The position numbers and the translations under genes were made by a program. Under the pieces are notes generated by a model. The model was not told where the DNA came from, did not search any database, and saw only the letters and a program-made list of their open reading frames with translations. From assembly GCA_013115125.1 (NCBI GenBank), contig JABANN010000321.1:1-39593 (forward strand): DNA of 39,593 nt, given 5' to 3'. Of this stretch, positions 183 to 35,842 are shown piece after piece (the stretch's first letter is position 1; every line of letters starts with the position of its first letter). This DNA is from Perkinsus olseni (Eukaryota).

Positions 183-204
183 CTGGGAGTCTCCCAGTGG
201 GAGA
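183..204. mobile_element. 22-bp excision-type scar, 8-mer CTGGGAGA
   Basis: ctgggag tctcccag tgggaga = T[1-7]+rc(T)+T[2-8]. Confidence 0.75.
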
Positions 205-515: not shown

Positions 516-537
516 CTGATGCGGCATCAGTGATGCC
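516..537. mobile_element. 22-bp excision-type scar, 8-mer CTGATGCC
   Basis: ctgatgc ggcatcag tgatgcc. Confidence 0.75.
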
Positions 538-692: not shown

Positions 693-714
693 CTCTCATC
701 ATGAGAGTCTCATG
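693..714. mobile_element. 22-bp excision-type scar, 8-mer CTCTCATG
   Basis: ctctcat catgagag tctcatg. Confidence 0.75.
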
Positions 715-1037
715 TTAGGATAACTACAGATGTTCATTTGTTTGAAGAGCAAGGAGCCCTAGACGGCTCAAACTTTGACTCTCCCGAAAGCACGGCCATG
801 GATGGATTCAACTTGAACCAAGTTGAACCGTTGAAGTCTTGAACTGCAAGACGTGCTTAGTAAAGGGCCCCGTAGAAGAAAAAAATCAGACCGTGAATTT
901 ATCACTGGCAGGGAGAGAGCAACCTACAGCTAACTTCGAGGACAAAATCATCACCTCTCAACCTCCAACTCAGTAGGTTGGAAGCAATAACCATCACCCT
1001 TGTGATAAAGACCATAACAGACTCCACCGCCCTTACA

Positions 1038-1059
1038 GTAAGAGGCTCTTACTAAGAGC
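1038..1059. mobile_element. 22-bp scar inside the CA gene, 8-mer GTAAGAGC
   Basis: gtaagag gctcttac taagagc; creates the TAG TAA stop on the minus strand. Confidence 0.8.
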
Positions 1060-1651
1060 CGTACTTAGAAGCACCACAGGATGACAGACCATCACATACA
1101 CGATGACAGTAAAGGTTCACCTCCTCCTTCAAGCCTTCGGTTATATAAATCTTACGACCGTTCAATGGTTGAGCATCTCTATAGTTGGGGGCGATGACAT
1201 CTCCATCGGGGCCAACAGCAGACCTTAGCACTTTCATCTGATCCTCACTGATTGTCATCGTCGTCTTCGCCACATGCCAGAGAACATTCTCATCACAGGT
1301 AGGTATGGTGATGGAACCATCATAACCAAAGTACTTTGTACTCGCCTCCTCGGGCATCAAACCATACAAGTCGATGGACTCAACAGTCTGACTAACGGTC
1401 TTCACGGCTTTGAGAATCTTCTCAATCTCGGGGTTGGCCTCGCCAATCTCAAAATTGACGCTGAAGAGAGCCAGGCCACCAGGCTTCCCCTTAGCATTCC
1501 CGAAACTTCCATATTTCTCGTTGTAATGAACGAAGTCGAGTCCCATTGGATAGGCCATACCTTCGAATAGATGCTCGCTGCCTGCCTCGTCGGTCAAGCC
1601 CCAATGAGCGTGGAAGTGCTCCAAAACAAAAGTGTCTTCTTCGAACATACG

Positions 1652-1673
1652 CACGTTAGTAACGTGACGTTAC
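1652..1673. mobile_element. 22-bp scar inside the CA gene, 8-mer CACGTTAC
   Basis: cacgtta gtaacgtg acgttac; causes the frameshift between the two CA ORFs. Confidence 0.8.
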
Positions 1674-3688
1674 TCATATTGTATCCCTTCTGCTCCGCTA
1701 ATACATTAATACCATAATTAGTGATACTCAAACCAGCTTCATCAATTTGACCATAATTGATCTGAAGATCTTCCAAAATGACCGACTGGTCGACAGCAGC
1801 GATCTCAATGGATATCGGTGATTGAGATTTACCCTCGGCACACATACCAGGCCAGGCAGACTGATCATCATAGGACCAATCAGAACCAGTAGCAGTGATT
1901 ATGATCTGACACAGGGTGGAGATGATGGTGACGCACTTCATCACAGGATGAGAATCAACTGGAGAGTAGTTTTTTCGAGGGATCGGACAATTGCGAATTC
2001 ATCCACATCCGGGGTTGAGCTCGTTCGAGTGAATCCTGGTTTCATCGAAAATTACGGTTGAATGACTCGAAACACGAGAACGTATTGCGCTCAACGTAAC
2101 AGCACTTGAGCTTCGAGTTCGGAGTACAACATCAGAGCAGACATGGGGTATGGGGAAGGTCTGTCGAGAACCCAGTGTAGAAGTGGCACTCAACTTGAGT
2201 TCGGGCTGAGTGACAGAAAAGGTCTCCCAGAATATGCCATGCTCAACATGGATTTCGAGTTCTGGAATCCTCTCGTAAACAGCCTCAGAAACCCGCCTCA
2301 GAGTGCCGCACGGTTACTCAAACGACCACACGCATCATGCATGTGCGTCACGCATGCACAGCACGCCATGTGCTCCTCTCCAAGCAAGATATATAGCAAG
2401 TTCGGGTCGGTAGTCTCAGTCTACCTCACGGAGATTTCAGTCGAAAAACGAGAGAGCACTGAACGCCCGGTGATTCCCAGGTGCATCTGCTATCCGGTGC
2501 TAGACGACTCGAGCTTGCCATGCTTGGGAGTAGCCCGCTATAGATGGAGACTGTCTCTAGGACAAGGGAGCACAGTAGAGTACAGCGCCACGCTTCAGTG
2601 GAATAAACCTTTGAGTGTACGAGCTTATAGTGTGCACAATACCGACTTTCCGAGGAATATACGAGTTGAACTCGTACACAGGGAACCCTCAGGTGAACGA
2701 GATTCATGTGTATGACCCATCATGGGCCGCCGGCCCGTCACTCCTTGCGCCTTGCCCTGGGGTCGTGCCTTGCGTACTTACCCGCTCGCTCGTGCTCCGC
2801 CAGCGGCACGCTGTCACGTTCACGCGTCACTCTGGCTTCCCTCCCCCTCGTGCACGATCCGTGCTCTTTTCCTCGGTGCTTGTTCCTTGGCGCCTCCCCC
2901 TGTACTCGCTCCATTATGTACTCGAGTAACTTGAGGCTGGGACCGCCATACCTCTTGCGGTACGAGAGGTCGAGCATGAGTCACGCTACGGCTCTCTGTG
3001 ACTCGCCCGAACACGACAGTGTTGTGCGGCCACCACTATCCGCGCGTTGTCGAAGCGTCCTTGGCGCTGCCTTCTAGTCGGTCATCCCGCAACTTCCCAG
3101 CTACCCACCACCTGTCGCGACACGACCGCAGGTGCTGTGCATCACCGACAGATCGTAGGCTGCGGACATCATCAATACCATCCAAGTTGTGATGGTATTG
3201 TGACAGTACTTGCAGTAAAATCTACGAACGCTTGGAGCTCGGCATGGGAACATTCTCCGCTCCGTCGTGAACTAACCTTTTTATGAAGTGCTCGGAATTC
3301 CCAGTCGAAGCCTACACTTGCTCGTTCCCCGTTTCACATCTTTCTAGATGGCATAGGGTAATGAGAGAAGCGGAAGAAGCAACGTACGAAGACTTTTTGA
3401 AATATACTCTCACTCAACTCAAACTCTCTATCGAGGGCCCTTCGGCGAGGGGACTTACAAGTCAAGTACGCCTTTCCAAGGCCTATTGTATTTTAGCGCG
3501 CGCTGGCGAAATTGATTTTACTAAGGCATATGATATGCCGCATATCTTGGCGCCGGTGATCGGTCGCTCTGCGAAAGTGATCTTACTAAACGCGAAATGG
3601 TGTAAATCAATTTCTCCTTATAGCGAGGATAAAGAGCAGCTTGTGAGCCGCTTGAGAGCCTCCTGATGATGGCTCGGGAAAGGACTTA

Positions 3689-3710
3689 AACAGGACTCCT
3701 GTTACAGGAG
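3689..3710. mobile_element. 22-bp scar, 8-mer AACAGGAG
   Basis: aacagga ctcctgtt acaggag. Confidence 0.75.
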
Positions 3711-3867
3711 CAGAGATAACGCAAGCGGCAGAGACACGCCAACTTTGCAACAGCGCTCTGTGTTCAACACGACACAGAGTGTCGGAAGGATCCTAGTTCT
3801 TCGCCTTGTGTTTGCGTACACTAGCACGCAGACTCACACAACGCTGCCAACCCTGAAGTTTCCGAAA

Positions 3868-3908
3868 GCTCGTGCCGGGGTTCGAACCCGCGACCTTTAG
3901 ATTTGAAA
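3868..3908 (-). other. tRNA 3'-half-like fragment (anticodon-side, variable loop, T arm, acceptor 3' strand)
   Basis: Minus strand reads TTTCAAATCTAAAGGTCGCGGGTTCGAACCCCGGCACGAGC followed by TTT; no matching 5' half upstream. Confidence 0.5.
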
Positions 3909-4185
3909 CGGAAGAGGTTTTCATGTGAAGGTGATAGAGTAAATTGCAGAGCTCGTTTCGTTTCATTTTCATAGTAACACCATCTAATGCATTGAGTTGG
4001 CAATTTCAATCAGTATCTTTCCGCATATCTTCAACCTCGCAAGATTCATGTAGGTTGAGTTTTCATGGATTCCCTCAATGACATCTCGGATGTGTTCCAA
4101 GAAGCAACTCGGACGAAAAATGAAATAGACGATCTGCTCGGCCGAATGGAGGAGGCAGGTAGTATCTATGGTCGAACACTGGGGA

Positions 4186-4270
4186 GTATCTTCAGGTTGA
4201 AGATAGGAAAGTATCTTTAGGTTGAAGATAAGAAAGTATCTTTAGGTTGAAGATAGGAAAGTATCCTTAG
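4186..4270 (+). repeat. 25-bp minisatellite GTATCTTTAGGTTGAAGATAGGAAA, about 3.4 copies
   Basis: Tandem copies read directly. Confidence 0.9.
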
Positions 4271-4378: not shown

Positions 4379-4590
4379 AGTGTACCGCGGAATATGCAGG
4401 GATGTGGTCGTTAGAAACGTCCAACTCTATCCGTGCCATGGACTCTCGCCGCCCCACTGCCGCCTCGATCCGGCCACTGGTTTCAGAAATTTCGACCAGT
4501 GCAAGAAATTTCTTTTGTTAAGATTATCTTTCCGTATGAATTTCTAGAAGGCCAGTCAGAATAGTATTCAGGGGACGATGAACCAATCCT

Positions 4591-4672
4591 GAGACTCAGA
4601 GTCGATTCTGGAAACGCCTCATTTTACGTGTAAGAAACAATTCCAGAACCGATTATCCTGAGCTTCAGAATT
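4591..4672. repeat. About 80-bp dispersed element with paired AGAATCGATTCT palindromes (degenerate copy)
   Basis: Aligns by eye with 26703-26785 and 32251-32330. Confidence 0.6.
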
Positions 4673-6541: not shown

Positions 6542-6919
6542 TATGGTAGATCCGAGAGCCCAGTCCGTTGCTGTTTTCAGGTCTTCGTCGTGGCCCTGTT
6601 TTTCATCCTTTATTGGTTCCTCCGTGCTGGGAGATGAACCCGAAGGAGATGGTGGTTTATACCGCTCGAAGAGGGAGGCTAACGACGCCGTGCCGTCGCC
6701 ACTGGAACACGCCTGATACATTTATCAATATGGTGCTGTTCTATTTGGGTTCAGTGGGAGTGGAATTTGGGGACAGCCGTTGCACAATGAGGGCTAGAGC
6801 TGGCGCATCGATATCTTTGTTCTCGGTGAGGTTCAAGGTTCGACTTAAGATTCCTTGAGGATAATGTATGACGCAGTGTCAGTTTAGTTGTGAAAGAGTT
6901 TTATTTTCACTCGAGGGAG

Positions 6920-9327
6920 ATGACTCGTAGCGTTCCGCTCCGATCAGTCACTTTTGCTCGGCACTTGTCCATCATCCAAGACGCCTCTTCTAAGAAGACT
7001 GGGTGTATTCAGTACAGGGTTCCGGGAGGGGTCCAAGGGCGTATCTTTTATCCGGCAGTATCCGAGGTTCATCAAGGGTATAAGCAAACTTTGTGGTTCA
7101 CGGATCTCGAAAGATATGCGTGAGTTGGGAATGGGTCTTAGTCGTAACGGGCTGACCATTCAGTCCGGTGGCAAAAAACCTTTCCGAGTTTGAAGATTGA
7201 AACGAGACCGGGCGCGTTAGAGTGGAAATTCGAAGGCTTTTCGAGCGATGGAATGTCCGACCGGACTTAATCGCAGATTTTTTCTGCTACACAAGTGAGA
7301 GGAAAATATTTTTTATTCGAAGCCTGGAGGAAAGTTATCAGTTTTTGGCTGTTTTCGGATCCCTGAGTTGCAGTCCGTGAGTTCTTCTTATCGAACCGCC
7401 GTTCAGGACTGGCCAGTTGGACGTCGGCCGAGCTTTGTTTAGAAGATCTCGAGTAATGCAGATAGTTGCTTCGATCTTGGAGTGGATGGTGAAGATTGTA
7501 GCCTATGTTTTGCCGAGGTAGCATCTTGCAATCTTGCATTTCCTTAACGCTGGTTATGTCTTCAGTCGTTTGTTCGTACCAAAGCTGAGCTCGACTTATG
7601 ATCGTATCGAACCGGTCGAGGAGGGGTCGCTGCCACTTGTGGTGTTCTCGCATGGACTGACTGGAAATGGCGATGAAAACGCTATGCTGTGCTCAGCACT
7701 GACTCGTAAGTATTTATAGTGATTAGTTGGGGAAGCACTTGCCTTTCCATCGGAAGGTCTCTGGTTCGATCCTCCCGCGTGTCGTTTAGGTGAAATTGTC
7801 GGAGGTGCTATTGTGGCGGAAGTCCATCATCAGGATGGCTCAGCCTGCGAGGCGGTGGACGAGGACGGCCACAAAATACCATATATTCCGGTGGGAGCTC
7901 TTATCCATGGTACCCAGGTTCGATCCCCGGTGGCTTGATTTTAGGACCCCATTGGAAGCCCGGACCCCAGAGATCTTCGGCCTAAGCAAGTGCGCCAGCG
8001 TGCAAATGAGATGAACTCGGTGGTCGAGTAATACTACAACTTTTGTAATTTATGTATGTGAATATCCAACGGTTTCAGATACCTCTGTGCGATCGGGTCC
8101 GGTGAGGAGAGGTCGGATCCCTTGCTGAATCGTGTGGCGAGGTTGATCGACCCTCGTCGTATTATCCCTGTTGGTTACTCCTTTGGTGGTGCTACTGTGG
8201 CTGAATATTGTAATAATCGGAAGAATCTTCGAAGCTCGAGAAATGTCGTCTCGATTGGAGTTTCTCTCGCGGGAATAAAACTGTTATTACTCCTTCTGAA
8301 ACGGTCGCATCCGGAAGAGATTGCCTCGAAATCAGGCTGGGAGAATCGAGCTCTGGGCAGGGTCGGCTTAGCTTGGTCTCTGCCCTCCAGAGTCTGGAGG
8401 TCTCAGTGTCTTTTAGAATGAATGCTGAGCGCGTCATTCCCTATTGTCTGCAGGTTCCACAGTTGGTCTGAAGAAAGTGGAGGATAAGTGTGTGCCGTGC
8501 GCGGTATTGATGGACCCGTGGACGTACGTTACCCCTAGGGACGGCTCTCAAGGGTTCAACTTCCCTGAGAGAGCACATAAAGAAGGTACCAACGGGCGTT
8601 CTGTTTTAGCGGTTAACGGGGATGGTTTAGTACCGACGAAGACCCTAGCTCGAATCTGAGTCCCTAACGTTTAAGCAATGTATTCTCGTCCCGTATCGAA
8701 GGTGACTCTTTCTATGTACTTCTGGTAACCGGTAGGTATCTGAGAGGTGCGGAATAATTTTCGAAACTTATTTTTCCGTGTGAGCCCTTTGCTGTGCTTC
8801 TGCGTTTCTTACCGCCTGTCTCTTGAGGTTGTATGAAGTTGTGGTCAGGAATCCAAACACCGACACTGATCCTCGGTAGCGAGGAGTTCTCTAAGTACCC
8901 CGGTATGCGTGCCGCTACTGTGAACTTGCATGATAAGAGCTTGCAACCTGGAAGTCGGCTCAGGGTACGATTTGGTGAAGTTATGGTATGTGCGAATGTG
9001 CGAGTATTCTAGGTAGTCGATAAGACAAGACATGGCAACTTCATGGAGCTTTGTTTTTGGATGCCGAAGTTCCTCGTGCCGGTCGCGGCTAGGATTGGAT
9101 TATACGATAAGAACAACAAATCTGCGAGAGGTGAGCGGAAGGTTCACTATTCTTTAGCGGAGCGAAGTTTTTCTTCTGCAGGTACGTACTGCAAAATCAT
9201 AGCGTCGATCGCTAATTTCATATTTCTGAATACGTCCTCTCACGCCCACAGTGCGTTGGCGTCGAAAAGAGTTGAGGAAATACCAAGTGAGAGCAAGATG
9301 AGCAAGAGGAACAATCTAAAGGAGTGA
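6920..9327 (+). CDS. PAF-acetylhydrolase-like alpha/beta hydrolase, copy 1 (multi-exon)
   Basis: Exons encode GRIFYP, LPLVVFSHGLTG, EVHHQDGSA, GYSFGGATV (nucleophile elbow), VLMDPW and DKTRHGNF, separated by GT-AG introns. Exact exon structure not fully resolved. Confidence 0.75.
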
Positions 9328-11911
9328 ACTTCGTTATTGCTCACTTGGACATGAAGCCAAGATTTCAAGCGGTGTTTTATAGCTTGTTATGGTTGGCATT
9401 CGTTCGTGGTGTTGTTTTGCACCCGATGGTTTTGTTTTACGGCGATAATCTTCAGTCTTGTTTTCCGTCACGAATGTTCAGTTGAGTTGGCGTGCGGTGG
9501 TCTTGTCATTGGGAAGGTCTGGCGCGTCGGCTGCATGGGTCTTAGTGGTCATTGTACGTAGGGCTGAGAGAATGGGAGAAAGGAGTTCGGAAAATGAAGT
9601 CCGTGGGCTTGGAACCTGGGAGCTCCACTTGTCGCGAAAACTTTTAATGTGTAACCTGCGCGTCTTAGCCTGTGATGACGATCAGTCTGGAAGTATAAGA
9701 GAACCCGTGCAACGGTTTCAAGATTTGATCGAACTCTCGTATCGCGGTTAGTGATTCCACTTGGTAGAATCTACTGCCAAGTTGGTAACCTATGAAAATC
9801 CGTTCAAGGTCGGTGGAGAGATGCTTAAGTAGCATAGGTTGCGAATTGCCTGAAAGCTCTTCGAGAGAACCGTCATTGCAGACTTCCGAGAGTGTCAAAT
9901 TGACGCTGTCAGGGTGACCTCTGGATTTTCGCAGATGACTTGATTCGAGGCAGGTTGTCGGCGCGTAAAGGCGGACCGAAGAAGGCGTTTTGCAGATACG
10001 AAGTAACGAAGATCAAAAAGTCTTCAAGGTAAGCTGCCGTTTGAAAGGTTCCTGGTGCTGGTCTGCCACCTGAATTTGCCACTACGGGCGGGTGGAGAAG
10101 GTAGCGAAAAATCGTAGACGGGCGGTCGTGGAGCGCGACCATAGTTCGTGCTAATTTTCTCGGAAGATTCGAACCCTTAATTCTCAATTCTCCTTTCTTC
10201 AATCTTGCGTGTCTTTCCCGGAGGAAATCGATCGTTGCTCTCTACTAGCAGGCCTACGTGTAGTCGTCTACTTCCTCTTGTTTCGGTCTGTGGGAGACAG
10301 CTAAGTTGTCACAGCGGATCTTGCCTTTCTTTCCGAGAGAAACGTTGCCGGCCGCGCGGAGGCTACGAGTCGTACTTTAACGACTTGCAGTCTTCAGGGT
10401 TAGTATCTGTTGTATTTCAGCAGTCTCTCGCTTTGAGTATTCAACTGGCGATTGGATATTGCTGACTTTGAGATGCATGATCATCATGCACCAGCTTCGG
10501 CCCAGCTACGATGATTTCGCTAGTGTTATCCGCTCGAGTGTTCCGAGTGCTGAGCTAGCTCACGGGATTCTGAGATGCTCTCGGGTTGGGACTAGATGAG
10601 GACCTGGGGTGGATGAGGAAGCGTCACCGTAGACCGATTGGACCGTTGGAACGGGTTAGCTGCTGGTCAGCAACGTTATGAACGCTCGGAGTATCTCGGG
10701 TGACCGCGGGTTTCTGCAGGATGCAGCGAGTCTCTGCCCAGTGAAATGGGCTCCTGTGTTCGAGCAGCTCGAGCCAAGCTGTAATTCATCTACGTTAATC
10801 TAATTCATCTACGTTGCGCAATGACGTCGCCGAGCGGCGGTCGCTCGAATCACAGGTAGTGCTCGGCGGGTGGTCAGAGGTCCTGCGGCAGACGCGTTGG
10901 GGCAGGGGTTCAGACTTGATATTCGCCACTTGAGACAGACACTTCCATGAGACCGAGCGTGTGGGGAAGGTTATGGCGTGTTTATGTCTCTGTCCACATT
11001 CTCCTGGGCGTTCACAGTGGTTTGCCGTGCCACGGTATTGAAGCTTCGCTGACCCTATCAACCTGAGACGGAGATTCAAGCTAGCCAAAGCAAAGGAGTC
11101 GGTGATACACAACGTGGGTGACTTCTGGTCAGGGATGGTTTCCGAATCGTCTTCACGGAGCTATCAAAGGTTGTGGGGGCTGCGGACAGAGGCTCGTCAA
11201 ACTACGTGAGGAACAGCACCTACACAAATCAACACTGCCTTCAAGACACCAGGAACAAGTTGTTCGTAAGTGCGCATCGCGCGAACCGCATCGAGTGCCA
11301 TATGGGGGATCCGTTCTGAGGGAGAAAATATGAATAAACAGGGTGAGGGGGGACGAGATGCATGACTCCGAATCGAGGTGTGTTTCTATTCTTGCTCTTG
11401 AGTTGAAACTTTCGGTGGAAACGGGATGGTCTAGTTGTGTACATTTTTGAGCGGCTTTTTTGACAGTGTGAAATCTGAGGGAACTTCACCGCCGAAATGG
11501 CGCTGGCTGTCCTTCCGATGGTTCTAGGTTGCATCTTATATCATGTGCAGCTATTTAAGCTGGGGTTCTCTGCTTGAATTAAGGAGTGGAGGGATCGTCT
11601 CTCCTTCAGATGAATGAGTGCCTGTCAGGAACTCCCTAGAATGCATCGAGGCTCGCCTTTATCGGGGAAGGTTGACGTCTTCGTCTTCGTCCGGTATGAA
11701 CCTTCGGAGAATCTCTGGCAGAGATTAAGAGGAAATGACTGTTCAGTATTGGCTGTTGAAAGAACGTTTTAATTCATAACAGCGATCTTCCGAGTTTCGT
11801 CACAGAACTGCTTCTCTCGGAGTTGAACCAATTCGAACTCGTTTATGCCTGGCGGAGTGGATTTGGTGTGGATTAGTTTGTTCGTGATAAAGTTTGCTTC
11901 TTTTGAGGGCG

Positions 11912-14015
11912 ATGACTCGTGGTGTGCCCCTTCGCTCCGCTGTTTTCGCTCGGCACTCGCCCGTCAACCAAGAAAGCTCGACGAAGAAGACCGGTTGTAT
12001 TCAGTACAGGGTGCCAGGGAGTGTTGAGGGACGTATCTTTTATCCTGCAGTATCGGAAGTTGATCAAGGAACGAAACAGACAACGTGGTTTGCGGATCTT
12101 GAACGATATGCGTAGGTTCAGCCGATCGTTGGCCACCAGTAGTCGTGACTTCCATTCTCGTTCGCCAAGTAATACTAGGGGGAGAGGCAGAGATTTTCAG
12201 TCGCTCCTTCCCGGTGCAGCAGGACTGTGAGAGCCGGTTGCTACGCTAGGGTGAGTTCGACTAGAGATTTTCATTAGTTCGTTAAACTTCTTGACTTGAA
12301 GCATGATGATCGAGGGTCCTCTGGAACAATCTAAATGGGCGACTCCTCAGTGTCGTTGTATCCGTTCAGGACTGGTCAGTTGGACGTCGGCCGAGCTTTG
12401 TTAAGAAGATCTCGAGTGATGCAGATGGTTGCTTCGATCTTGGGGTGGATGGTGAAGATAATAGCTCATGTCCTGCCGAGGTAACATCTTGCAATCTTGC
12501 ATTTCCTTAACGCTGGTTATGTCTTCAGTCGTTTGTTCGTACCAAAGCTGAGCTCGACTTATGATCGTATCGAACCGGTCGAGGAGGGGTCGCTGCCACT
12601 TGTGGTGTTCTCGCATGGACTGACTAGAAATGGCGATGAAAACGCTATGCTGTGCTCGGCACTGACTCGTAAGCATGTCGGGAAGCACCTGCCTCTCCAT
12701 CGGAAGGTATCCGGTTCGATCCTTCCGCGTGTGGTTTAGGTGAAATTGTCGGAGGTGCTATTGTGGCGGAAGTCCATCATCAGGATGGCTCAGCCTGCGA
12801 GGCGGTGGACGAGGACGGCCACAAAATACCGTATGCTCCGGTAGGAAGCTCTCATCCATGGCACCCAGGTTCGATCCCCGGTGGCTTGATTCTAGGATCC
12901 CATCGGAAGCCCGGACCCCAGAGATCTTCGGCCTAAACAAGTGCGCCAGCGGGCAAATGAGATGAAGTCGGTGATCGAGTAATACCACCCCTTTCGTAAT
13001 TCATGTATGTGAATATCTGACGGTTTCAGATACCTCTGTGCAATCGGGACCGGTGAGGAGAGGTCGGATCCCTTGCTGAATCGTGTGGCGAGGTTGATCG
13101 ACCCTCGTCGTATTATCCCTGTTGGTTACTCCTTTGGTGGTGCTACTGTGGCTGAATATTGTAATAAACGGGAGAATCCCCGAACCTCGAAATGCGAGCT
13201 TGATAATAATTCGGTTCTGTTTCATAGTCTATGAATCATGGAGCCATTGTCAGGCCATGGCACAGGATTCGAGCACTCAGCTGGGTATTCCCTCAGTGAC
13301 TTCACATTGGCGTTGAGTATCTTTCCGGTCCTGACTGCGCAGTTCTGTCTGTAGGCTCGACAGTTGGTCTGAAGAAAGTGGAGGATAAGTGTGTGCCGTG
13401 CGCGGTATTGATGGACCCTTGGACATACGTTACCCCTAGGGACGGCTCTCAAGGGTTCAGACTACCTGAGAGAGCCCATGATCGAGGTTGGATATGAGAC
13501 CATTCTTATGCGTTTTATGAGAGGCTGAGGTGTTGTCAGGAATCCAAGTGCCGACGCTGACTCTCAGTAGTGAGGAGTTTATCAATTCTCCTGATATGCA
13601 AGCGGCTACTGTCAACTTGCACAATAAGAGCTTGCAACCTGCGAGTTTCGGGGTACGATTTGGTGGAATTTTGGTATGTGCGAATGTGCGAGTATTCTAG
13701 GTAGTTGATAAGACAAGACATGGCAATTTCATGGAGCTTTGTTTTTGGATGCCGAAGTTCCTCGTGCCAGTCGCAGCTAGGATGGGATTTTACGATAAGA
13801 ACAACAAATCTGCGAGAGGTGAGCGGAAGGCTCATCATTCTTTAGCGGAGCGAAGTTTTTTATGGGTAGATACATACCGGAAAATCGTTGCAGCGGTTGC
13901 CAATTTCATTCATTTGCAGACCTCTTCGGATGCTCACGGTCCGCTGGCACCGCGAATGCGCGGGGGAATATCTAGTGAGAGCAAGATGAGGAAGAGAGGC
14001 AATTTGAAGGAGTGA
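11912..14015 (+). CDS. PAF-acetylhydrolase-like alpha/beta hydrolase, copy 2 (tandem paralog)
   Basis: Near-identical exons to copy 1 (FSHGLTRNG, GYSFGG, MDPW, RHGNF); introns partly diverged. Confidence 0.75.
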
Positions 14016-14264
14016 TTTTTTCCTCGTTCGGAACGAGTCGTTCCTTTGGAGGTTACACACGACCTGCTTGTAGTCGAAATCTTGTTTGATAGATTGGCGC
14101 TTAGTATTCCTGTAGATGGTGATTTACTGCATCCTATGGTTTCGCATTGGTGTAGTATCCCGTGGTTCGGTGGATAGTCGAGATGGTCGCGCCGCTGGGC
14201 TAGCTATCGGGAGGGCGTGGGCTCAATTCTATGTGCGGAGGTTTCTCAGTTTTCTCTTATCAAC

Positions 14265-15974
14265 ATGCCAGCCTCTTCGACGTATAGTGACGTTTCCACG
14301 GCCGATAGCATCGAGCCGAGCATCCCCGCCTCATCATCATCACCGCCCTCTACCTCGTCTTTAATAAATAAGTCAGGGGGAGATCTGAGCGTAGTGGATT
14401 TAATATGTGCTGATATGGACGGGACATTATTATCACCCGATCATAATATACCCGATATAACATTTAATAGGATTAATAAAGCTGATAATAATGGATGTAA
14501 CAACAACAAAACCATCATACCAACAATCCCCTGCATCAGGTCCGGTAGTACCCGCTACTGGGAGAAGTCGTGCCTCAGCTGTTCAATGTTTTGCACGCGG
14601 AGGCATTGACCTGTAATAATCGGGCGGGTCGTGAGTTCGATCCCCGCAGGGGGTGTTTTTCTGCAGTTATTCTCGGCCGGGTATTTATTTGAATGGAGCT
14701 ATCACCTACGACCATACAGGAGCAGTGGTAGCTGAAAAGATTCACTCTTACACAGATGTACCATCGGCGGGGCCTCTCCCTGAGCTTATTCGTATCCTGC
14801 ATGGTCGACTTGAAGATACGTTGAATGTGAATGTGCTTCTCAGATCGTCGAAGCCGTGAGAGTAGTGGAAGGCGTTGATGACGTCGTCGTATTGCTGTAT
14901 AATGGAGACAGAGTGCTAGCCCCTTGTAGCTCGGGGAGAATTGAGGAGATTTACGAATCGTAAAAAGTGTCGTGTGCGAGGATAGATCCGGGGACCTACC
15001 GATTCTGATGCAGACTGCATACGCCGTGCCCTGAGAACTGCGGTTCTTATGAGAAGATGCTCTCGAAGATCCACGATGAGGCCATACCCATCAACCTGGT
15101 AGAGCTGGGAGGACTGTGGCTGCCTGCACGAAGTGTCTGAGGGAAGCTCACCGATGAATCGACTTTATTTATTCGCGAATGACCCTTGAGTTTTTCCCAC
15201 CCGAATCGCTTCAGATTCACTTCATGTCGCTAGAAGGCCGGTTGCCAGAGGACATGCTGCGGAAGATCAGAACGTTTTCAGAGTAAGCTGTTATTCATGG
15301 GGCGCGGCGTTAGTCACTAGCACCAATTGCGACTGCAGTTAAGGAAGCCTGCACTGGCTTTTTGCTATGCTCTCTGCTATGGGCCGTGCTGTGAGGATGT
15401 ATAATGTATCGCGCTCCTTTGGCCGCGGAACCTCGGAACCGATCAGCCGCAGTATTCGTGTGCCGGAAGAATTCAATAGTAAAAATGACGGGAGCGAAAG
15501 GCTCTCGCCGCTGAAAGATGTACCCTCTGCAGATTGCCAAGAAGTATCCTTGTCTGAACAGGTCCAGCGGATGTACAGCAGCACAGTCTCTTTGGCGTTC
15601 CTGCGATGTGGTGCCCGCGGGGGTGAACAAAGGACTGGGAGTGAGAGTTCTGAAGGAAAATCAGGGATGTAAGCAGCGGGGATTGAACCTGGGTTGTTCG
15701 GTTGAAGGACTGAACCCGAAACTACGCCTGTTCAATCTCAGATGAACGGGTAGCATGTATCGGAGACGCATTAAATGACTTGGAGATGCTGCAGGAGGCT
15801 GATGTTCCAGTCGCTATGGGAAACGCCCTGCCCGAAATTAAGGTGACGGCGAGATCGATCGATATGTGGCGGATATGGTATTTTCAGAAAATTGCTTCTC
15901 TTGAAGTCAACCCGAATTCCAACTCGGAATTGCCGGGAGTGGCCGATTTAGTAGACCGCATCCTATCTAGTTAG
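14265..15974 (+). CDS. Cof-type HAD-IIB hydrolase, copy A (multi-exon)
   Basis: Motif I ADMDGTLL, motif II VPATGR, GIYLNGA, VNKG.G, motif IV CIGDALNDLEML..A...VAMGNA. Confidence 0.85.
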
Positions 15975-16796: not shown

Positions 16797-18143
16797 ATGT
16801 CGGCAGTCCGGATCGTCTACATCCTATCCTTGTGTACCCTCGCCTCTTGTTTGTGGAAGGTCCGTGTGACCTCGACCTCTTCAGCAACTACTACCGTCTC
16901 GCCACCGACTACTACAGTATCGCCACCGGCTACTCACGCAGCCTTCTTACCGACTTCCCCACCTGCTGTGAAGCCCAGAACAGGTGTTCATCGTGGGTAT
17001 GTAGAGTTTTATAAGTTCGTCGAAGAAGCTTGGTATCGTAAGAAAAAACCCTTCACGAAATATGGTCGAGCTAGTATGGATTATACTTGGAGGACGTACA
17101 TTGACAATCACCTCAAGATGGGTATTAGGAACTTCGTGCTCGGCCACATTACTATCACAGAGAGCCGCATTGAATTCGGCGGCGGCACGAGAATGCACAG
17201 AGAATGGGACCAGACGAGTGCGTTCAAGTATCTGAGGCGAAACGTGATAGCCAAAGGAGGTCGGATACTGGTCGATATCAAATTCACGGACTTCCACCGC
17301 ACCGTATTTGATGAAAGCGTGTTCCTTGAGGAGGTTGCCGAGTTCGTGAAGGAATTTCCTGTTGATGGTTTTCGGATTCTTGCAAACTTGGAGTACAAAT
17401 ATCCCGGGATACGAGGTTACAAGAGTGAATAAGAGTATTTCGGTTCCGTGAAGGCGCTGCTCAAGACCATCAGGAAGTTGAATAAGATCCTAGCGATCTG
17501 GTAAGCCTGATGCTCGCGGAGATGGCGGTGGGACATCTGTGCTGTTTCTAGGTTCAAAGGTTCTAGCTGGGCTGAAATATTCAAACATGAACTAGGGAGC
17601 CTTGCGGATACTAATTTTTTATCTTTGGACATTCGAGGTGACACTGACATCGCCGTGTTCAACACCGATCGCTACGCCGTGCTTTTAAACGCCAGCTGGG
17701 CAGGCATGGCCCCCGACAAAATCATTCTCTCGGTGAGTTGTCTGCGACTTCTAGCAGCGATTACCATGTTTTCTCGACGAGAAATTCTCGTGCTGTTAGA
17801 TGTGTTGACCTCCATATTTGTTGTGCATAACACTGACAGTCTCCTGCCGTAGATACCCCTCGCCGCCTACGGTTCTATTCCTAGGTGGGGAAGCTACGGG
17901 TATCGTGCTATAGTACTAGACCATGGTGCAGACCCTGAGGGGGATGGTGTCGTCCCAGGCAACTCGGAACAGACGAACTTCTACTACTTTTTCTCTCAGA
18001 AGAGTGGCATCGATAAGATCCACCTGGCGAGAGATCGCGGCCTCCACGGTATATCCGTGGAGAGTGATCGGAGGCGTACATACGTCGATCTGAAACCGTG
18101 GTCTCCTCGTTCCCTCACCCACGCCCTAGCCAATAACGTCTAA
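16797..18143 (+). pseudogene. GH18 chitinase-like secreted protein, catalytically degenerate, with in-frame stop at 17430-17432
   Basis: Signal peptide, S/T/P-rich linker, GGRILVDI and FPVDGFRILANLEY (degenerate DxxDxDxE). The frame continues after TAA, and later exons end YYFFSQKSGIDKIHLARDRGLHGISV...DLKPWSPRSLTHALANNV*. Confidence 0.55.
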
Positions 18144-18514
18144 CGCAGTCGGGTTGAGTGATAAGGCCGGCTACTTGCCAACTGCGCCGTGGATTACCTT
18201 CATAATCAACGTAGTATGAGATTCTCCGACTTGGTAGCGTAATCGAGACCGATGAGCACGGTGTTGTCTGCCCGAGCAGTTTCCTGAGTTTTTTCGGGAG
18301 AACCACTCTCTCTTCCACTCGGTTTAGGTCAGATTTCTCTGGTTTCCCTTTGTATTGAGTTTTCATTTCAACGTGGGGATGAATCAGGGGAGGTTATGAA
18401 TCAGGTGATCTTTCTGATCGCGAAATAGGCATTTAAAAGGTGCAGTGGTCCCCTGTTGCAAACCATATTGCTCCGGGAAGGAGGTGCTCAGTTAACACTG
18501 TTCACGATGTGAGC

Positions 18515-18536
18515 GTGCGTAATACGCACTGCGTAT
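18515..18536. mobile_element. 22-bp scar, 8-mer GTGCGTAT
   Basis: gtgcgta atacgcac tgcgtat. Confidence 0.75.
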
Positions 18537-18614
18537 GCCTCCGACCTCCAGCGAGATGAAAGAACGTCCAACGTCCCCGCGACTCTCTGGTACACTGCCC
18601 CAAAACAAAGGATG

Positions 18615-18636
18615 ATCAGGAGTCCTGATTCAGGAC
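18615..18636. mobile_element. 22-bp scar, 8-mer ATCAGGAC
   Basis: atcagga gtcctgat tcaggac. Confidence 0.75.
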
Positions 18637-20751
18637 TCTACCTAGTCAGGGCGAGCGCAGAATACTTCCATAGAGAGTGATTCTCATCATTGATGGAAGA
18701 CTCCCATTGGCTAAAATCGAAAGTTACCCATTGGGTAACTTACCCAGGGTAAGTTCTCCAGGGGAACTCACGGGAATTTTAGCCCTTTCCAGCGAAATTT
18801 TTAAGAAGTCTCCGTGAAGAAGACCGTTTTTCGAGCTCTTTTTTGCGTTTCTTCACTAACAGCAGACTTCAAGACGCGATTTGTCAAGACGTCGTCCGAG
18901 AGCTTCCAGTTCATAGTTATCCAGGACTCTCGGCCCGCAACCGAGCCTCTTTTATGATACCAGATGGTATTGGTGCTGGGTACGGCTGCGCAGTGCTCGC
19001 AGCTGGTGCTCAAGAGTCGCGGCAGCAACTTCCACTGCAATCAGGCAGCAGCTGTACGAGAAGGCGATGAGTGTGGCCCGCGGGGATCTCATGTACTCGG
19101 CCACCATGTACCCCGCGGCTTGCACGATCCTCGTAGGCTCGTTAACCCCGGGACCTGGGACCCAGGTTGGTAATTCCACAACTCCGATGAAAGTGGTAGC
19201 AAATTGCTACTAGCAATTGCAGGGATTCGGGATCATGGGCAACGTCGCGATGGTGACCTACTCCTCGAGTTTTGAGGCTCGAGTGCCGCTGTTCCTGTGT
19301 TGCCTTGCCACGGCGGTCCTGTTTGTACCGGTTCACAAATTGTGAATAACAATGGTAAAAAGCAAATGCCACCACTTGGTCTACCTGGGACGCATACGTG
19401 GCGGCGATGACGAAGAATCATGGTCCTGATGTCAAGCAAGGCTGCAGAGGAGACGAGGGCGAGGATCCATGGGCCCAGACTTGAAGCTACCTGACAATGC
19501 AAGATAATATCTCGGAGATATGGAGCGGTATCTCGGCCTCATCATCGTAAACGCACTAAGAAGACTCGAAACTTGCAAGTCCAAGGCAATGTCCAGAGAC
19601 GAATTGAAGGATATGAAGACCTTCTCTTGGTCGGCTCACCAGCAACCGTCGAAGAGTGAGAAGGAGCGACAACCACCTGCGAAGCATATTCCGCGTAGAC
19701 TGGAGTCCAGTCTACACGTGCACTCGGTGTTTCCGTAGCTACCTCTTCCATCCGCAACCAATGTACAATAAGTCCAATAATGATTATTGGACAATCAATC
19801 AATAAGGCACGCGTATTATCTGCTGCGGGCCACAGCCTACGGCGGTGCCGGGTCACAGTTTGCGACCCCTTGTGCCTGCAACATCGGCGTACGAATCGTA
19901 CGGTAGGGTAGGCGTCTTAAGTCGTCTTAAGTCATTACTTGAGTGAATTGCGCCTATCTTACATGCCCTTTGTCGGTTCTCCCGGGTTCGATCCTGAGCT
20001 TGGACATTTTCCGGTATTTTTCGAATCCGCCCTCTCTGAGTTAAGCATCCTACGTGTATCACGCACCGATGAGAAGGCGGCCTGCTGCAGGCCGTAGGCC
20101 CCTCGTGTTTCATCACCGATTATTATTGTATAGAGCCTACACGGTAATAATGAGTAACAATCTCTTGTCTGAGATTCAGGCCACTAAACTTGCAATTCGA
20201 GTGTAATTTTCTTGTCATTTTTGGAGGCGTTTGAAGATCGTTCAGTTGAGAATCGTGAAGATTGAGAAGTTGCTGAGCGTGTGGAGATTCTCCACTGGAG
20301 AAACTAGCTGTTGTGTTGGCCTAACACTGTTGGTAGAGTGCCCTTTCCGAAGGGTTGATTTCAAGGCGACGTATACTTCCCGGAAATCTCTCGTGGAAAG
20401 ATTCGACAGAGCGAATCCTTCTGTCTCGTTTTGGCAGGGTTCGTAAGTTTTCGGGAAAGTATTTCCTTGCGGAATACAAGATTTTGGGAATTACCCGTTT
20501 GTAAGGTTTGGATAGGCTGCTCGATATGGTTACTGATCGCCGTCATGCCTTCAAGAGGGGCATTCCTTCGATGTAGTAACAGCTTTCCCCGGCAGTGAAC
20601 TTCTCTGCCTTTGGTGTAGCGTTCGGGGACACTGTGATACTCCATAGGTACTACGGTGATATTAGTGGTATACTATCCGATCTCAGCTATACCGGTGGTC
20701 GGACGATTCGTTCGCTATTGGGTGCTTCTGCTGACGGCATGCTCCCTTCAG

Positions 20752-22435
20752 GTTCTTGACGCAGTGTCCTGTCCCTCTTGAGAGATGACAAGTCAGCCGT
20801 TTTACTGTGCTACAGTGGGGATCGTGTATTAGCCCCCTACAGGGATAATAGGGTTATTGTTGAAGTCTTCCAGAAGTAAGTGATGCTTGATGCTATTTGG
20901 CTCCCTTTGTGCTGAGAGACGTGGCCATGTGCAGCAGCACATAGCAGAAGGAAAGCTTCCGTTGAGGACATCTGCTGTACTGAGTCGCTGCAAAATCCGC
21001 TCCGATCGCTCTCCGGCGATCTAAGCTTCGCTCAACCCTGTGCGTGTTGCTGCAGATGATGATTCACGGATATTCGTATCTGCGTCATTCGTTAGCGGAC
21101 TACTTCCAATGAATTGAAGTTACTCACTGCGAAAAAGTGTGATCTTGTAGAAGTCTGATTTTGCAGCACTCCCTCCTGGGATGATGGTGATCGTTGAGAA
21201 CATGCCGTTCGTCAGTGCGGTACATCGGCCATCTGACCATGCTCCGATCTGCTGTGTCGGAGGAATTGGTTGCTAGCTCCAGTCACAATCGATTGGTATT
21301 CAGACCGCATGGGAGTCCTCCTTGCTTTGTTGTTTTGGTGGGGTAAATAATTTTCGTGCTTTGGAAAGTTCGACTCGGTCGTTATTAAATAAAACTTGAA
21401 GAATTAATTAATTGAAAAAATATCGAGTGTTGCTCATTTTGTGAATTCCCTAGTAGTATGGTACGATTTTTACTGAGATCTTGTCTTTGCCGTGGGTCAA
21501 TTTTAGATTGTCATATACTGTTATCCCGAGGCATGATTTACCTTGCCTTTTTCTGCTAGGTTTGGCGATCCGATGCCGGAAGATTGCGGCACGTACGAGG
21601 GTATGTTGGAGAAAATAAGCGCGGAGATGTTGCCGGTTCATGTGGTAAGCGACTGTAGCTCATCCGCTGGCTGGATGTGGGTACCTTTTTAGATGCACGT
21701 GATGTCGTTTGAGGATCCTATCGCTGCTAGTATGTGCAAGAAATTGGACGATTTTGCAAAGTAGGGTGGTGGGGATGAACCGGGGACCTTTCGATGGAGA
21801 ACATGTTACTGGCCCAATTGATCAGAAGCAAGGGTTGTGTGGCTGCCCAGTCTGTTTCGATGGCGGTGGATATTGTGCCGCAGGGGGTTAGCAAGGGATA
21901 TGGCGTTAAAGTACTGAAGGAAAAACTAGGATGTAATATTACAGGGTATCTTAGGTTGAAGCGCGTCAGATACATTTCAGCTCGGGATAGCAGCATAGTG
22001 GCCTCTGTCAGATAAGTGTGTAGCTTGCATCGGGGATGCTATGAACGACTACGGCATGCTGCTGGAAGCAGACGTGCCTGTTGCCATGGGGAACGCTCTC
22101 CCTCAACTTAAGGTAATATACAGCCGGGTCGAGTCGACTTTTTATTAATGAGTAGTAGCGGGAATTTTCATACGATATACTGCCGCTTCTCACGCACCGT
22201 GGAAGGTCTCATCATTATTCCTAGAACAGTGAAAATACATTCTACTGCTAGTTCTGGTGGGTGTGACTCGTGACCTGATGATCACAGCTCGTTGTTGATG
22301 TTGATGGGTTTTATAATAAAACTTTTATTGTTTCAGTCCGTCGCCTCCTTTGAGGTCAATACCAACGCAGACACAAATTTGCCGGGCGTTGCTGATCTGA
22401 TTGATCGGGTCTGTGCCGCTAGGAAGAGTGTGTGA
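20752..22435 (+). pseudogene. Cof-type HAD-IIB hydrolase, copy B (no motif I found, frameshift in first recognisable exon)
   Basis: Exons CYSGDRVLAP, PEDCGTYEGMLEKI, VSKGYG, CIGDAMNDYGML..VAMGNA, LPGVADLIDRV. A tgtcc duplication gives a stop near 20780, and no DxDGT was seen upstream. Confidence 0.6.
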
Positions 22436-22556
22436 AGGGGGATGTCTTTTTTAGTGTTTAGTTTTTCCTCGTTTTTCGGGACCCAGATGGACGTGTTGAG
22501 TTGGAGGGGAGGTGGACGGTTTTTCATCAGTAAATTGTTTTTATTCACATATCTTA

Positions 22557-22642
22557 ATGGCTGGCCAGGCTGAGAAGAAGAACAAGGCGAGGGCTGAGCA
22601 ATTGACGGAGGTAGTAATCGGAAGGTCCCGGGTTCGAATCCT
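22557..22642 (+). pseudogene. Truncated duplicate of TMEM208-like exon 1 and start of intron 1
   Basis: MAGQAEKKNKARAEQLTE nearly identical to 27938 onward; similarity stops at GGTTCGAATCC. Confidence 0.8.
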
Positions 22643-23022
22643 ACTATTCGATCACAGCTTGCCCTTCATAGCATTCCAGTCATGCCGTGCATCCCCGCCG
22701 GAAAGAAAACTGATCACTCAATAGATTCTATCTGTCATGGCGGTGATTGAAAATCGAAAACAATTACAGTGTTTCGAGGATAAGAATGTCGTGAGTATCA
22801 TACTTAGAGTATGACTCACAGTGAGTCGCTCACTCTTGGTGAGCCACTGCTCGAGCGAGTCGACTCGACTCACCGAGTTTATACATCAAACCGTACATCA
22901 TGTACTTTGCATGGTACATCTAGTCGCGTCTCTTTCGAGTCATGAACGGCGGGGCCAAAAAGACTTGCGTTGTGGGCTAAAAAAGTATTTTTGGGAGACA
23001 TTCTCCCGGAGAATCGCTATAG

Positions 23023-23044
23023 CTCAGCATTGCTGAGTCAGCAA
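23023..23044. mobile_element. 22-bp scar, 8-mer CTCAGCAA
   Basis: ctcagca ttgctgag tcagcaa. Confidence 0.75.
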
Positions 23045-23263
23045 TAGAGTAGAGTGCGGATGTGAATTTCGTAGGTCCCTGTTTGACATGTTATTCAATA
23101 ACACGTGCTCCCACTCCAATAGCTATTGCTGAGCTGTAGCTTTTTTGACGCACTCCTCAAAATTCCTGACTAGCTGCTCGCGCGCCACGAGCGCGAAGTT
23201 CGCGCTCGGGATTCGCGCCGCGAATTCCGATCGCCCATTATTGCGGCATGAACCGGTTGCGGC

Positions 23264-23285
23264 CCATCGGGCCGATGGCATCGGC
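23264..23285. mobile_element. 22-bp scar, 8-mer CCATCGGC
   Basis: ccatcgg gccgatgg catcggc. Confidence 0.75.
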
Positions 23286-23572
23286 TGGAATGGATGAGAT
23301 AAGAAGCTTCGAGTCGCACCCACTCGTTATATCCATCACAGCCAGCCAGTGCCGGTGCTTCTACTAACACTAGCTCGAAGCTACGAGAAGTTACAACGAT
23401 CCGCGAGACAACCGAATCCGAAACAAGCCACCGAATCACTAGTCTCAATACCAACCGATCAGTAGTAGAAGTCAATCCTTGCATCGCAATCGGAAGTCAT
23501 AAGCAAGAGTAGCCCAGGTCCTCAGAGCAGTGACTCAAATGATTAGTAATCACCTCAGATAGCCGCTAGTAC

Positions 23573-23594
23573 TAAGCCTTAGGCTTAAAGCCTA
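23573..23594. mobile_element. 22-bp scar, 8-mer TAAGCCTA
   Basis: taagcct taggctta aagccta. Confidence 0.75.
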
Positions 23595-23699
23595 TTGCAG
23601 ACAATGATTAGTCGATCGTAGCAATACTAGTAGTTCGCTCCCCTTTTGAGCCAACCAACGTCGATCCGACGATCCAACACATCCGACGATCCAACTCCC

Positions 23700-23721
23700 T
23701 AGGCGACTCGCCTAAGGCGAG
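23700..23721. mobile_element. 22-bp scar, 8-mer TAGGCGAG
   Basis: taggcga ctcgccta aggcgag. Confidence 0.75.
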
Positions 23722-24764
23722 TGGTTCAACTGGACCGTTTCAGAAATCAAGTCGTTTCAACTAGTCCGAGGTTTGCGCCCAGTCTGGGCGCACGCGACTT
23801 CCCTCTACCTGTTTGTGCTCGTAGAAAGCCAACTTCAGTAACTCAATTGCAGATTAACACTGTGAGGGAACGGTTTCCGATACAGGTTGAAGAACACTGA
23901 TGCCCTCAGCAGCGACGAACCACGATATCAGTAAAAGGAATCATGCGAACAACGGTGCACGGAGCACTACAATCGAGTACGCAATCGGCAGGAATTGGGG
24001 CCAGCAACTCTCCAAACTGCACGAACCCTAATGAGGAAACACTACCTTTGGAAAGTCGCTCTGTGTCGAGGCCTTCGACTCGAAGGACAGGTATGGGCGA
24101 GGCGATCGATTCGTCGGCATCTTTCGAAAGCCTTCCTTCTCATACGATTGTCGACCGTGGCTAATTCGGCCCGGACTGTTCGGGCCTGTATGATAATCGC
24201 AGCGAAGTGTAAAAAGTCTTTCTTTTCGTCGCTCCACTTGCAAACATGACTGAGTCCAATCGAGCCCGTGTCTCCCGAGTGATGCGCATGCAGTCTCCAT
24301 TGGGGTTGCATCCTCTGACCAAGAGACTAGGGAATCGCAAACCAATAGGGAGTGTAGATGACCTTGATGAGAAGCCTGTCAAGCCGCAGCACGACGTAAA
24401 GTGGTGATGAACAGCAACAGAGAATCCTTGTAGTACTTGGCGACAGCCGTGGACGACAGGGGAGCCATTATAGGTAAGACGACGGGGATCATTGGGGACG
24501 GAGTGGTTCACCAAGACTATTGCTGATAGCCTGCCACTCGCCGACAGAATTTGACCTTCAAATTTTGAAGGGACGTCCACACTTCCAAATGGCCTCTGAT
24601 AAATTCTACGCGTCCTCAGCTGTTGTCATTGGACCGGCTGGGGATATTATTTTCGCGAGTGACTCGTGGAGACAGCTCCTCCCTCGCATGCTCCTGCGTG
24701 CGAGCGCTTATCGTATACTTCTGCCTCACTTATCAACTCTACCGGTGGTAACATTCTTCACGTC

Positions 24765-25847: not shown

Positions 25848-25869
25848 ACATCATCATGATGTCATCATG
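25848..25869. mobile_element. 22-bp scar, 8-mer ACATCATG
   Basis: acatcat catgatgt catcatg. Confidence 0.7.
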
Positions 25870-26785: not shown

Positions 26786-27040
26786 TCGTTTAACGGGGGG
26801 TTTGTGTCATGCTGTGACCTGTTTATCGTTAGCACATGGTGTTTCTGGGCCAGGCCCGAGCGTATCTTCGCCAGCGAGGTCCTAGGAAATTTGATCGTCC
26901 GAAGGTGACGAGTATCTCTCCCACTGATGCTATTGGACACTTCCTTGTGATGATGATATCTCACAGTGAGATTCTCACTTTTGTCCATGCTGGTGGTCCT
27001 CCGCTATTGGGTGCTGCTGCTGATGGCATGATTATTTTGG

Positions 27041-35820: not shown

Positions 35821-35842
35821 GTGTAGCAGCTACACTGTAGCT
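35821..35842. mobile_element. 22-bp scar, 8-mer GTGTAGCT
   Basis: gtgtagc agctacac tgtagct. Confidence 0.75.

Follow-up and report, generated by a model that had tools for sequence, protein, structure and literature searches.

The 39,593-nucleotide contig JABANN010000321.1 of the protist Perkinsus olseni, a parasite of clams (assembly GCA_013115125.1), which was analysed over its whole length and is referred to below as the window, carries near its beginning a single-exon copy of an alpha-carbonic anhydrase (CA) gene whose reading frame is interrupted at two places by 22-nucleotide sequences of identical architecture. Each such 22-mer, hereafter called a scar, can be written from a single 8-mer x as x1..x7, followed by the reverse complement of x1..x8, followed by x2..x8, i.e., an 8-mer becomes 22 nt, a gain of 14. 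The same form recurs far beyond the CA copy, and the pages below describe the copy, the class of scars to which its two interruptions belong, and the transposon excision events that would have produced them.

The carbonic anhydrase copy and its interruptions

The features of the CA locus on which the argument rests are the following:

902..1941, minus strand: alpha-carbonic anhydrase pseudogene, single exon (Pfam PF00194, tblastn, CA II structure matches)
1652..1673, no strand: scar 1, perfect 22-mer CACGTTAGTAACGTGACGTTAC, ancestral 8-mer CACGTTAC (plus strand; sequence scan, tblastn, in silico healing)
1038..1059, no strand: scar 2, perfect 22-mer GTAAGAGGCTCTTACTAAGAGC, ancestral 8-mer GTAAGAGC (plus strand; sequence scan, tblastn, in silico healing)
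1535..1543, minus strand: Gly-Leu-Asp codons where the paralogs and CA II have Glu-x-His (alignments; codon positions worked out by hand)
954..968, minus strand: probable third lesion, a small scar-free indel with a net +1 frame shift (open reading frames, paralog alignment)

Read on the minus strand from its start ATG at 1941-1939, the CA copy runs in frame -3 up to scar 1, in frame -2 up to scar 2 and in frame -1 up to a TGA at 953-951, while its final 17 codons (955-905, with the stop at 904-902) lie again in frame -2. The Pfam profile PF00194 matches 1674-1941 over profile positions 2-61 (E = 1.5e-4) and 1052-1651 over profile positions 76-252 (E = 8.8e-46), and structure chains of CA II match the copy with E = 7.8e-30. 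A tblastn comparison of the intact paralog P0001 with the window yields three high-scoring segment pairs with contiguous query ranges in three frames (residues 1-97 at 1941-1660 in frame -3, 84-294 at 1690-1055 in frame -2, and 294-318 at 1043-969 in frame -1), and the frame switches between them coincide with the two 22-mers. The contig's own gene model of the copy is FOL46_005331 (P0010), from Perkinsus olseni, and the locus has been modelled in three further assemblies (FOZ61_005814, FOZ63_014255, and FOZ62_023357). Searched against the database, the middle piece of the copy (199 residues) returned nine proteins, eight of which are carbonic anhydrases of P. olseni or P. marinus sharing 52-85% identity with it; the ninth bears only a JGI label and is 31% identical. 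The CA family is large: on other contigs there are at least six full-length models of paralogs, 341-365 residues long.

Scar 1 separates the codons of ..YNMSNV from those of RMFEE.. and precedes the HFHAHWG zinc-histidine motif by 12 codons, and scar 2 brings TAG TAA in frame directly after ..SKYGS. When 14 nt are removed in silico at 1652-1673, YNMSNV is joined to RMFEEDTF...HFHAHWG, and when 14 nt are removed at 1038-1059, GS with its two stops becomes GSYCKGGGVCYGLY. With scar 1 alone healed, GS is still followed by two stops; with both scars healed, pieces of 205 and 134 codons fuse into one open reading frame (ORF) of 320 codons. Nine deletion registers were tried per scar and gave three distinct sequences, the seven internal registers giving, by our reading of which register maps to which sequence, the identical healed one. 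Aligned with the paralogs, the healed ORF has no gap at junction 1 in 8/8 cases nor at junction 2 in 6/6, the second count being confined to the paralogs that extend that far (the models P0006 and P0007 end or diverge earlier). Some 9 residues before junction 1 the aligned proteins also differ in length by 2 residues, in frame; this difference belongs to a variable loop and has nothing to do with scar 1. Because the alignment with intact paralogs from P. olseni and P. marinus is gapless over both junctions, these protein comparisons show the insertions to be derived, with the 22-mer as the later state and the single 8-mer as the ancestral one. The original prediction had placed both 22-mers in the CA gene, attributed its broken frame to them, and proposed that each is a derived insertion into a single 8-mer; its healed joins, among them GSYCKGGGVCYGLY in place of GS and two stops, were reproduced in silico, the restored frame is the 320-codon ORF, and the polarity that it proposed is borne out, at the protein level, by the gapless junctions in the intact paralogs.

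Two other defects lie outside the scars. At 1535..1543 the copy contributes to GLDFVH, where 8/8 paralogs read E-x-H-F-V-H and CA II reads ELHLVH, so that a His has been replaced by Asp and the Glu two residues before it by Gly. From the residue roles in human CA II, we take the His of E-x-H to be the third zinc ligand; the HFHAHWG motif is present in the copy, and the set of three zinc-ligand histidines is incomplete. Since the diverged paralog fragment P0008 shares the change, reading GLNFVH at this site, the loss of the ligand may predate the scars. The other defect lies between QPTE and (C/G)DD, where the copy has 13 nt vs. 9 nt in the paralogs, and a paralog-like tail (GDDFVLEVSC, against CDDSVLEPVMC in the paralogs) remains out of frame even with both scars healed. 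Because this tail homology is short (7/11 residues), a third frameshift is only probable.

In each of the four assemblies the CA gene model passes directly from YNMS to MAYPMG, thereby omitting scar 1 and dropping 33 codons that include both histidines of HFHAHWG. With four residue differences from the window, the FOZ62 and FOZ63 models represent a further allele or isolate, which also carries the break. An intact version of the copy was absent among the nine database matches. The uninterrupted reading frame of a functional alpha-CA is likewise lacking, stops following immediately after scar 2. From these sequence features we conclude that the CA copy is a pseudogene, which would have no functional product. 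Its scar density, 2 per kb, is near the window mean of 1 per kb; because two scars in 1 kb correspond approximately to the neutral density of the window, the scars may have built up in a copy that was already dispensable, a course of events that fits as well as killing by the scars themselves. The original prediction had regarded the scars as gene-killers. As far as the frame is concerned this holds, for +14 necessarily changes it; that the scars killed this copy does not follow, given the loss of the zinc ligand, the third frameshift and the near-average scar density.

Several of the other P. olseni CA models (P0004, P0016, P0013, P0014, P0020, and P0003) are truncated, frame-shifted at the start or segment-skipping. 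P0004, for instance, starts with an out-of-frame reading of the DDQSAWPGMC region, and P0016 skips segments. Further members of the family may be frame-broken, possibly through scars.

The scar class across the window

The window contains 22 perfect 22-mers, and 32, 42, and 60 when up to one, two, and three mismatches are allowed (the last three counts including overlapping matches), vs. 0, 0, 0, and 1.0 in 20 shuffles. With overlaps removed, 41 scars with at most two mismatches remain, about 1 per kb, 19 of which carry one or two substitutions. A chance origin is excluded. When the pattern was generalised to k = 5 to 11, in odd- and even-centred forms, only the odd-centred form with k = 8 was found (22 perfect, 32 with at most one mismatch); the other lengths and the even-centred forms gave no perfect instance in this range save one chance match at k = 5, and the even-centred form x+rc(x)+x at k = 8 is represented by none. 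The same geometry is apparent in the palindromes of the window: odd-centred palindromes with arms of at least 6 nt number 79 vs. 8.8 in shuffles, even-centred ones 18 vs. 8.5, and the mode of arm length is 7 (49/90). Direct 6-mer repeats peak at an offset of 14, with 37 occurrences, the remaining offsets between 6 and 30 giving 2-22.

Besides the two in the CA copy, the perfect 22-mers, all located by sequence scan and without assigned strand, are:

183..204, perfect 22-mer scar
516..537, perfect 22-mer scar
693..714, perfect 22-mer scar
3525..3546, perfect 22-mer scar
3689..3710, perfect 22-mer scar
14023..14044, perfect 22-mer scar, with a 13-nt gap in the paralogous copy near 9335 (sequence scan and DNA alignment)
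17770..17791, perfect 22-mer scar
18515..18536, perfect 22-mer scar
18615..18636, perfect 22-mer scar
18732..18753, perfect 22-mer scar, nested with an odd palindrome of 10-nt arms centred at 18731
19196..19217, perfect 22-mer scar
20281..20302, perfect 22-mer scar
22308..22329, perfect 22-mer scar
23023..23044, perfect 22-mer scar
23264..23285, perfect 22-mer scar
23573..23594, perfect 22-mer scar
23700..23721, perfect 22-mer scar
25848..25869, perfect 22-mer scar
26958..26979, perfect 22-mer scar
35821..35842, perfect 22-mer scar

The internal duplications of the window were aligned at the DNA level for empty sites; their flanks, at 59-77% identity, are too diverged, and only the scar at 14023 faces a gap (13 nt).

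The relation of the scars to constrained sequence was assessed on a set of 9,860 bp made up of Pfam-supported ORFs, ORFs with a log-likelihood ratio above 10 under a codon model, and blocks conserved between internal duplications, which serves as a partial test in place of a full exon map; the codon-usage model is weak (about 13 ORFs accepted), and only its ORFs above this threshold were used. Of the 39 scars that lie elsewhere than in the CA gene, not one touches the constrained set, against a mean of 10.3 under circular shifts, a control that preserves the clustering of the scars (P = 0.0028). The Pfam ORFs alone, a weak test, give 0 vs. 3.2 expected (P = 0.12). For this window, the result supports the original prediction, which had noticed no scars in the exons of the apparently intact genes. 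Such a depletion fits selection against frameshifts, and a hAT-like preference for open non-coding DNA would also produce it. No long ORF appears when the scars in 1-900, 3200-3950, 18300-20800, 22200-24700, and 35500-36600 are healed, and these five clusters are therefore probably intergenic, non-coding stretches and not hidden transposase genes.

Some details of the distribution and of individual sites deserve mention in their own right. Scars concentrate in two hot spots of about 2 kb each, 18484-20334 and 22308-24570 (about 13 and 14 scars, respectively, with at most three mismatches), and the stretch from 26980 to 35686, where TMEM208, a HAD hydrolase and DnaJ are encoded, is free of them. 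At 18721-18753 an odd palindrome with 10-nt arms, centred at 18731, runs into the scar at 18732-18753, a nesting that points to more than one round of insertion and excision at this site. A 30-mer variant at 34870-34899 consists of x1-7, two tandem copies of rc(x), and x2-8, with x = GAAATAAG; it stands outside the simple model of scar formation set out below in that the base before its last block is the complement of x1, not x1. Finally, a 16-mer similar to a short footprint, TCTTGCAATCTTGCAT, is present at 7524-7539 and 12487-12502, corresponding places in both copies of an internal duplication, and the event behind it would predate that duplication.

Origin of the scars and rival explanations

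We consider it likely, as one joint reading, that the CA locus is a dead member of the tandemly amplified P. olseni alpha-carbonic anhydrase family and that its two independent 14-bp insertions, like the other scars, are footprints of a cut-and-paste transposon of the hAT superfamily that inserted with an 8-bp target-site duplication (TSD) and was later excised. The identity of the element is inferred from its traces: the 8-bp TSD, the odd centring of the palindromes and the base preference of the target. The scars are built on an 8-bp duplication, and the centres of their palindromes are the complements of x8 and x1, as in the footprints of Ac/Ds, whose palindromes have as their centre the complement of the TSD base beside the element (PMC5873905, excerpt). 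Of the 41 inferred 8-mers, 21 have T at base 2 and 21 have A at base 7; symmetrised, this amounts to 42/82 vs. about 25% from base composition, in agreement with the target preference nTnnnnAn, i.e., T2/A7 in the 8-bp duplication, that is described for Hermes (PMC8721813, excerpt).

A simple course of excision and repair would yield the observed product. The transposase would nick one nucleotide into each flank and seal each flank as a hairpin, the left one reading x1-7 and then the complement of x8..x1, and the right one reading the complement of x8..x2 and then x1-8. The offset of one nucleotide is that of the hAT nick, as known from the biochemistry of Hermes. If the hairpins were then opened far from the tip, at a distance of at least 8 nt, rather than at the tip, the unfolded 3' tails would carry revcomp(x) and x, which are complementary over exactly 8 nt and could anneal; trimming of the flaps and filling of the gaps would leave x1-7 + revcomp(x1-8) + x2-8, the 22-mer. 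The order of hairpin opening and annealing is our inference, as is the derivation as a whole, which reproduces the 22-mer base for base and would account for its fixed length. Short footprints and long single palindromes are expected from the same model as minor products. Classical short footprints are few (p = 1, q = 1: 3 vs. 0.2; p = 0, q = 2: 3 vs. 0.5; p = 2, q = 0: 2 vs. 0). Long odd-centred palindromes lie at 26516-26570, 35536-35576, and 23179-23217, with arms of 27, 20, and 19 nt that are 96, 95, and 79% complementary, respectively, and that are separated by just one nucleotide in each case; such palindromes are probably footprints of a single hairpin, in which the ends were joined with no 8-nt annealing.

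Several points weigh against the hAT reading. Neither a hAT element, nor a pair of terminal inverted repeats (TIRs) with an 8-bp TSD, nor a transposase domain was found in the window, and Pfam detected no transposase in 149 of the 151 ORFs of at least 78 codons, the remaining two being the CA ORFs that matched PF00194. The polarity of the scars is based on protein alignments with paralogs that are 65-85% identical, and no empty or filled allele was seen at the DNA level. The one-nucleotide offset of the nick is drawn in part from Hermes biochemistry, and its support here is a single passage on Ac/Ds (PMC5873905, excerpt). The dominance of distal hairpin opening in P. olseni is without explanation, and the depletion of scars from constrained sequence can be explained by insertion preference instead of selection. 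The four assemblies may be partly dependent on one another, and the gene models in them are predictions. Two candidate donors were considered and rejected: one weak combination of TSD and TIR (11/14) is attributed to chance, a search at 9/10 giving 0 vs. 0.1 in shuffles, and a 110-nt foldback repeat present in three copies has no TSD and does not qualify as a miniature inverted-repeat transposable element.

A hairpin process acting on the flanks of something other than a classical mobile hAT element, such as a transposon of another superfamily with 8-bp duplications, a domesticated hAT-like nuclease working with no mobile element, or template switching or snap-back by a polymerase while a break is repaired, appears unlikely. 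In its favour are the donor element and transposase that were not found in the window, and a footprint frequency of about 1 per kb, which is very high for a stretch without a resident element. An 8-mer duplicated on both sides, however, requires a staggered cut and fill-in, i.e., an insertion, and under snap-back or template switching the loops and arms would be expected to vary in length, whereas the window has a strict 8-mer with a 1-nt centre; a polymerase snap-back origin was rejected on this ground. P-element footprints retain nucleotides of the element ends, whereas the scars consist of target sequence only, and a P-element origin was rejected. P elements do also make duplications of about 8 bp (PMC3706591, excerpt). 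Mutator-like elements (MULEs) combine duplications of 8-10 bp with flank hairpins, but the flank hairpin of the MULE Muta1 is even, with 43+43 nt (PMC5499845, excerpt), and even-centred scars are absent from the window, so this origin was likewise rejected. The T2/A7 bias, moreover, agrees with that of Hermes (PMC8721813, excerpt). Neither is it easy to regard the 22-mers as sequencing or assembly artefacts in a gene that is intact in the organism. All of the evidence does come from assemblies, and the FOL46 and FOZ61 contigs are of nearly equal length (39593 and 39618 nt) and perhaps not independent. Yet the same frame break follows from four assemblies, among them a version with four residue differences, 19/41 scars carry one or two substitutions like ageing real sequence, and the scars avoid constrained sequence and show a target-site base bias. 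We know of no library artefact that yields the 22-mer structure, and this explanation is hardly credible.

It is also improbable that the scars are harmless, being removed from RNA as mini-introns made of a hairpin and direct repeats, or hopped by the ribosome by means of the 7-nt repeat, with the CA copy expressed. Both CA scars remain perfect, and each has in its first repeat a codon that appears again 14 nt further on, the first copy in scar 2 preceding TAG; such a recurrence resembles ribosomal bypass sites. In addition, the scar, with its 6-7 nt direct repeat around a hairpin of 6-7 nt arms, is a miniature of the layout of the non-canonical introns of the related parasite Amoebophrya, which have terminal inverted repeats of 8-20 nt and direct repeats of 3-5 nt across the exon/intron borders (PMC7789003, excerpt). 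Within the same excerpt, however, those introns are validated only at 40-1000 bp, whereas the scar segment measures 14 nt. None of the seven frame-restoring 14-nt deletions in either scar has GT..AG borders. To our knowledge, 14 nt is shorter than any known spliceosomal intron. Moreover, none of the 39 other scars falls in the 9.9 kb of constrained sequence, the CA copy is also deprived of a zinc ligand and carries a scar-free frameshift, and no protein matching the healed copy is present among the nine matches. A broader version, in which the 22-mers, as hairpins within 7-nt direct repeats, might be removed or bypassed at the level of RNA or translation or be precisely reverted in the DNA, is very improbable. 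If it were true, hAT footprints would be the seed of Amoebophrya-type introns with direct and inverted repeats, and scarred genes such as the CA copy could be switchable and not lost.

The hAT reading can also be set beside known systems. Ac/Ds footprints in plants, budding yeast and Candida resemble the scars in their 8-bp TSD, their P-nucleotide palindromes and their use of microhomology after hairpin opening, with palindrome arms of up to 20 nt in yeast (PMC5873905, excerpt). Experimental Ac/Ds footprints are heterogeneous, however, with 28 types in 128 Candida events (PMC5873905, excerpt), whereas in P. olseni one product dominates (22 perfect scars vs. about 8 classical short forms), and the scars are natural and dense (about 1 per kb) in a protist genome, with no donor nearby in the window. 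Insertion into nucleosome-free regions has been reported for Hermes, which shares the T2/A7 preference (a reference title in PMC8721813, excerpt), and the P. olseni scars cluster in apparently non-coding stretches. The bias of the scars, at about 51%, falls short of that of Hermes, and neither a Hermes-like element nor a transposase was found in the window. In V(D)J coding joints, off-centre opening of the flank hairpins made by RAG gives short palindromes, the P nucleotides, which resemble the scars in that respect. These P nucleotides comprise a few bases and no TSD, in contrast to the scars, which comprise 8 nt and whose joint would be set by TSD-derived complementarity. The hAT, Transib, and RAG systems are related (PMC5499845, excerpt), and an origin of the scars from Transib or RAG was considered and rejected. 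The introner elements of Amoebophrya also place direct repeats around a hairpin-forming inverted repeat in genes of a myzozoan parasite, but they measure 40-1000 bp, form repeated families and have splicing validated by RNA-seq (PMC7789003, excerpt), whereas the scars add 14 bp of local target sequence only. As for the CA copy, it resembles acatalytic or pseudogenised alpha-CA copies in having the PF00194 fold and a lost zinc-ligand His, and, unlike conserved CA-related proteins, it would also be frame-broken three times.

Significance and other features of the window

Taken alone, the CA pseudogene is ordinary, because its family has many tandem copies; its value is that it tells the derived from the ancestral state in a very abundant class of sequences. 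The scars would form a readable record of transposon visits in P. olseni, a parasite of commercial molluscs, and if the window is typical, extrapolation gives tens of thousands of them genome-wide. They point to an unusual repair of transposase-made hairpins, with distal opening and annealing on an 8-nt inverted copy of the target. Gene predictors invent introns across scars, as in the four CA models that all drop zinc-binding histidines, and searching Perkinsus annotations for the 22-mer would bring out pseudogenes and genes with faulty models. Frameshift alleles due to transposon footprints and long palindromic hAT footprints are already known. What looks new is that a single stereotyped 22-bp product dominates at about 1 per kb in perkinsozoan DNA, with no donor in the window. 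No report of such scars or of hAT elements in Perkinsus was found in open-access papers and bioRxiv, the matches there including no P. olseni genome paper, and an earlier description is possible.

The window has several other repeated features. A segmental duplication pairs 6906-9259 with 11898-13947, about 5 kb apart, in blocks of 75-95% identity separated by unalignable gaps, and further duplicated blocks pair 14310-14619 with 29566-29890, 20708-20857 with 26997-27141, and 22395-22641 with 27777-28022. The foldback element of about 110 nt mentioned above, with the palindromic core GAATCGATTC, lies at 4582-4654, 26685-26795, and 32241-32332; neither a target-site duplication nor an Rfam match was found for it. 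Sequences resembling tRNA T-arms (GGTTCGAATCCC and relatives) occur in both orientations at 28000-28023, 29903-29926, 12863-12883, 15674-15694, and 31574-31590, and ARAGORN and Rfam detect no tRNA in the window. Finally, a tandem repeat of about four 25-nt units with 82-84% identity occupies 4170-4269.

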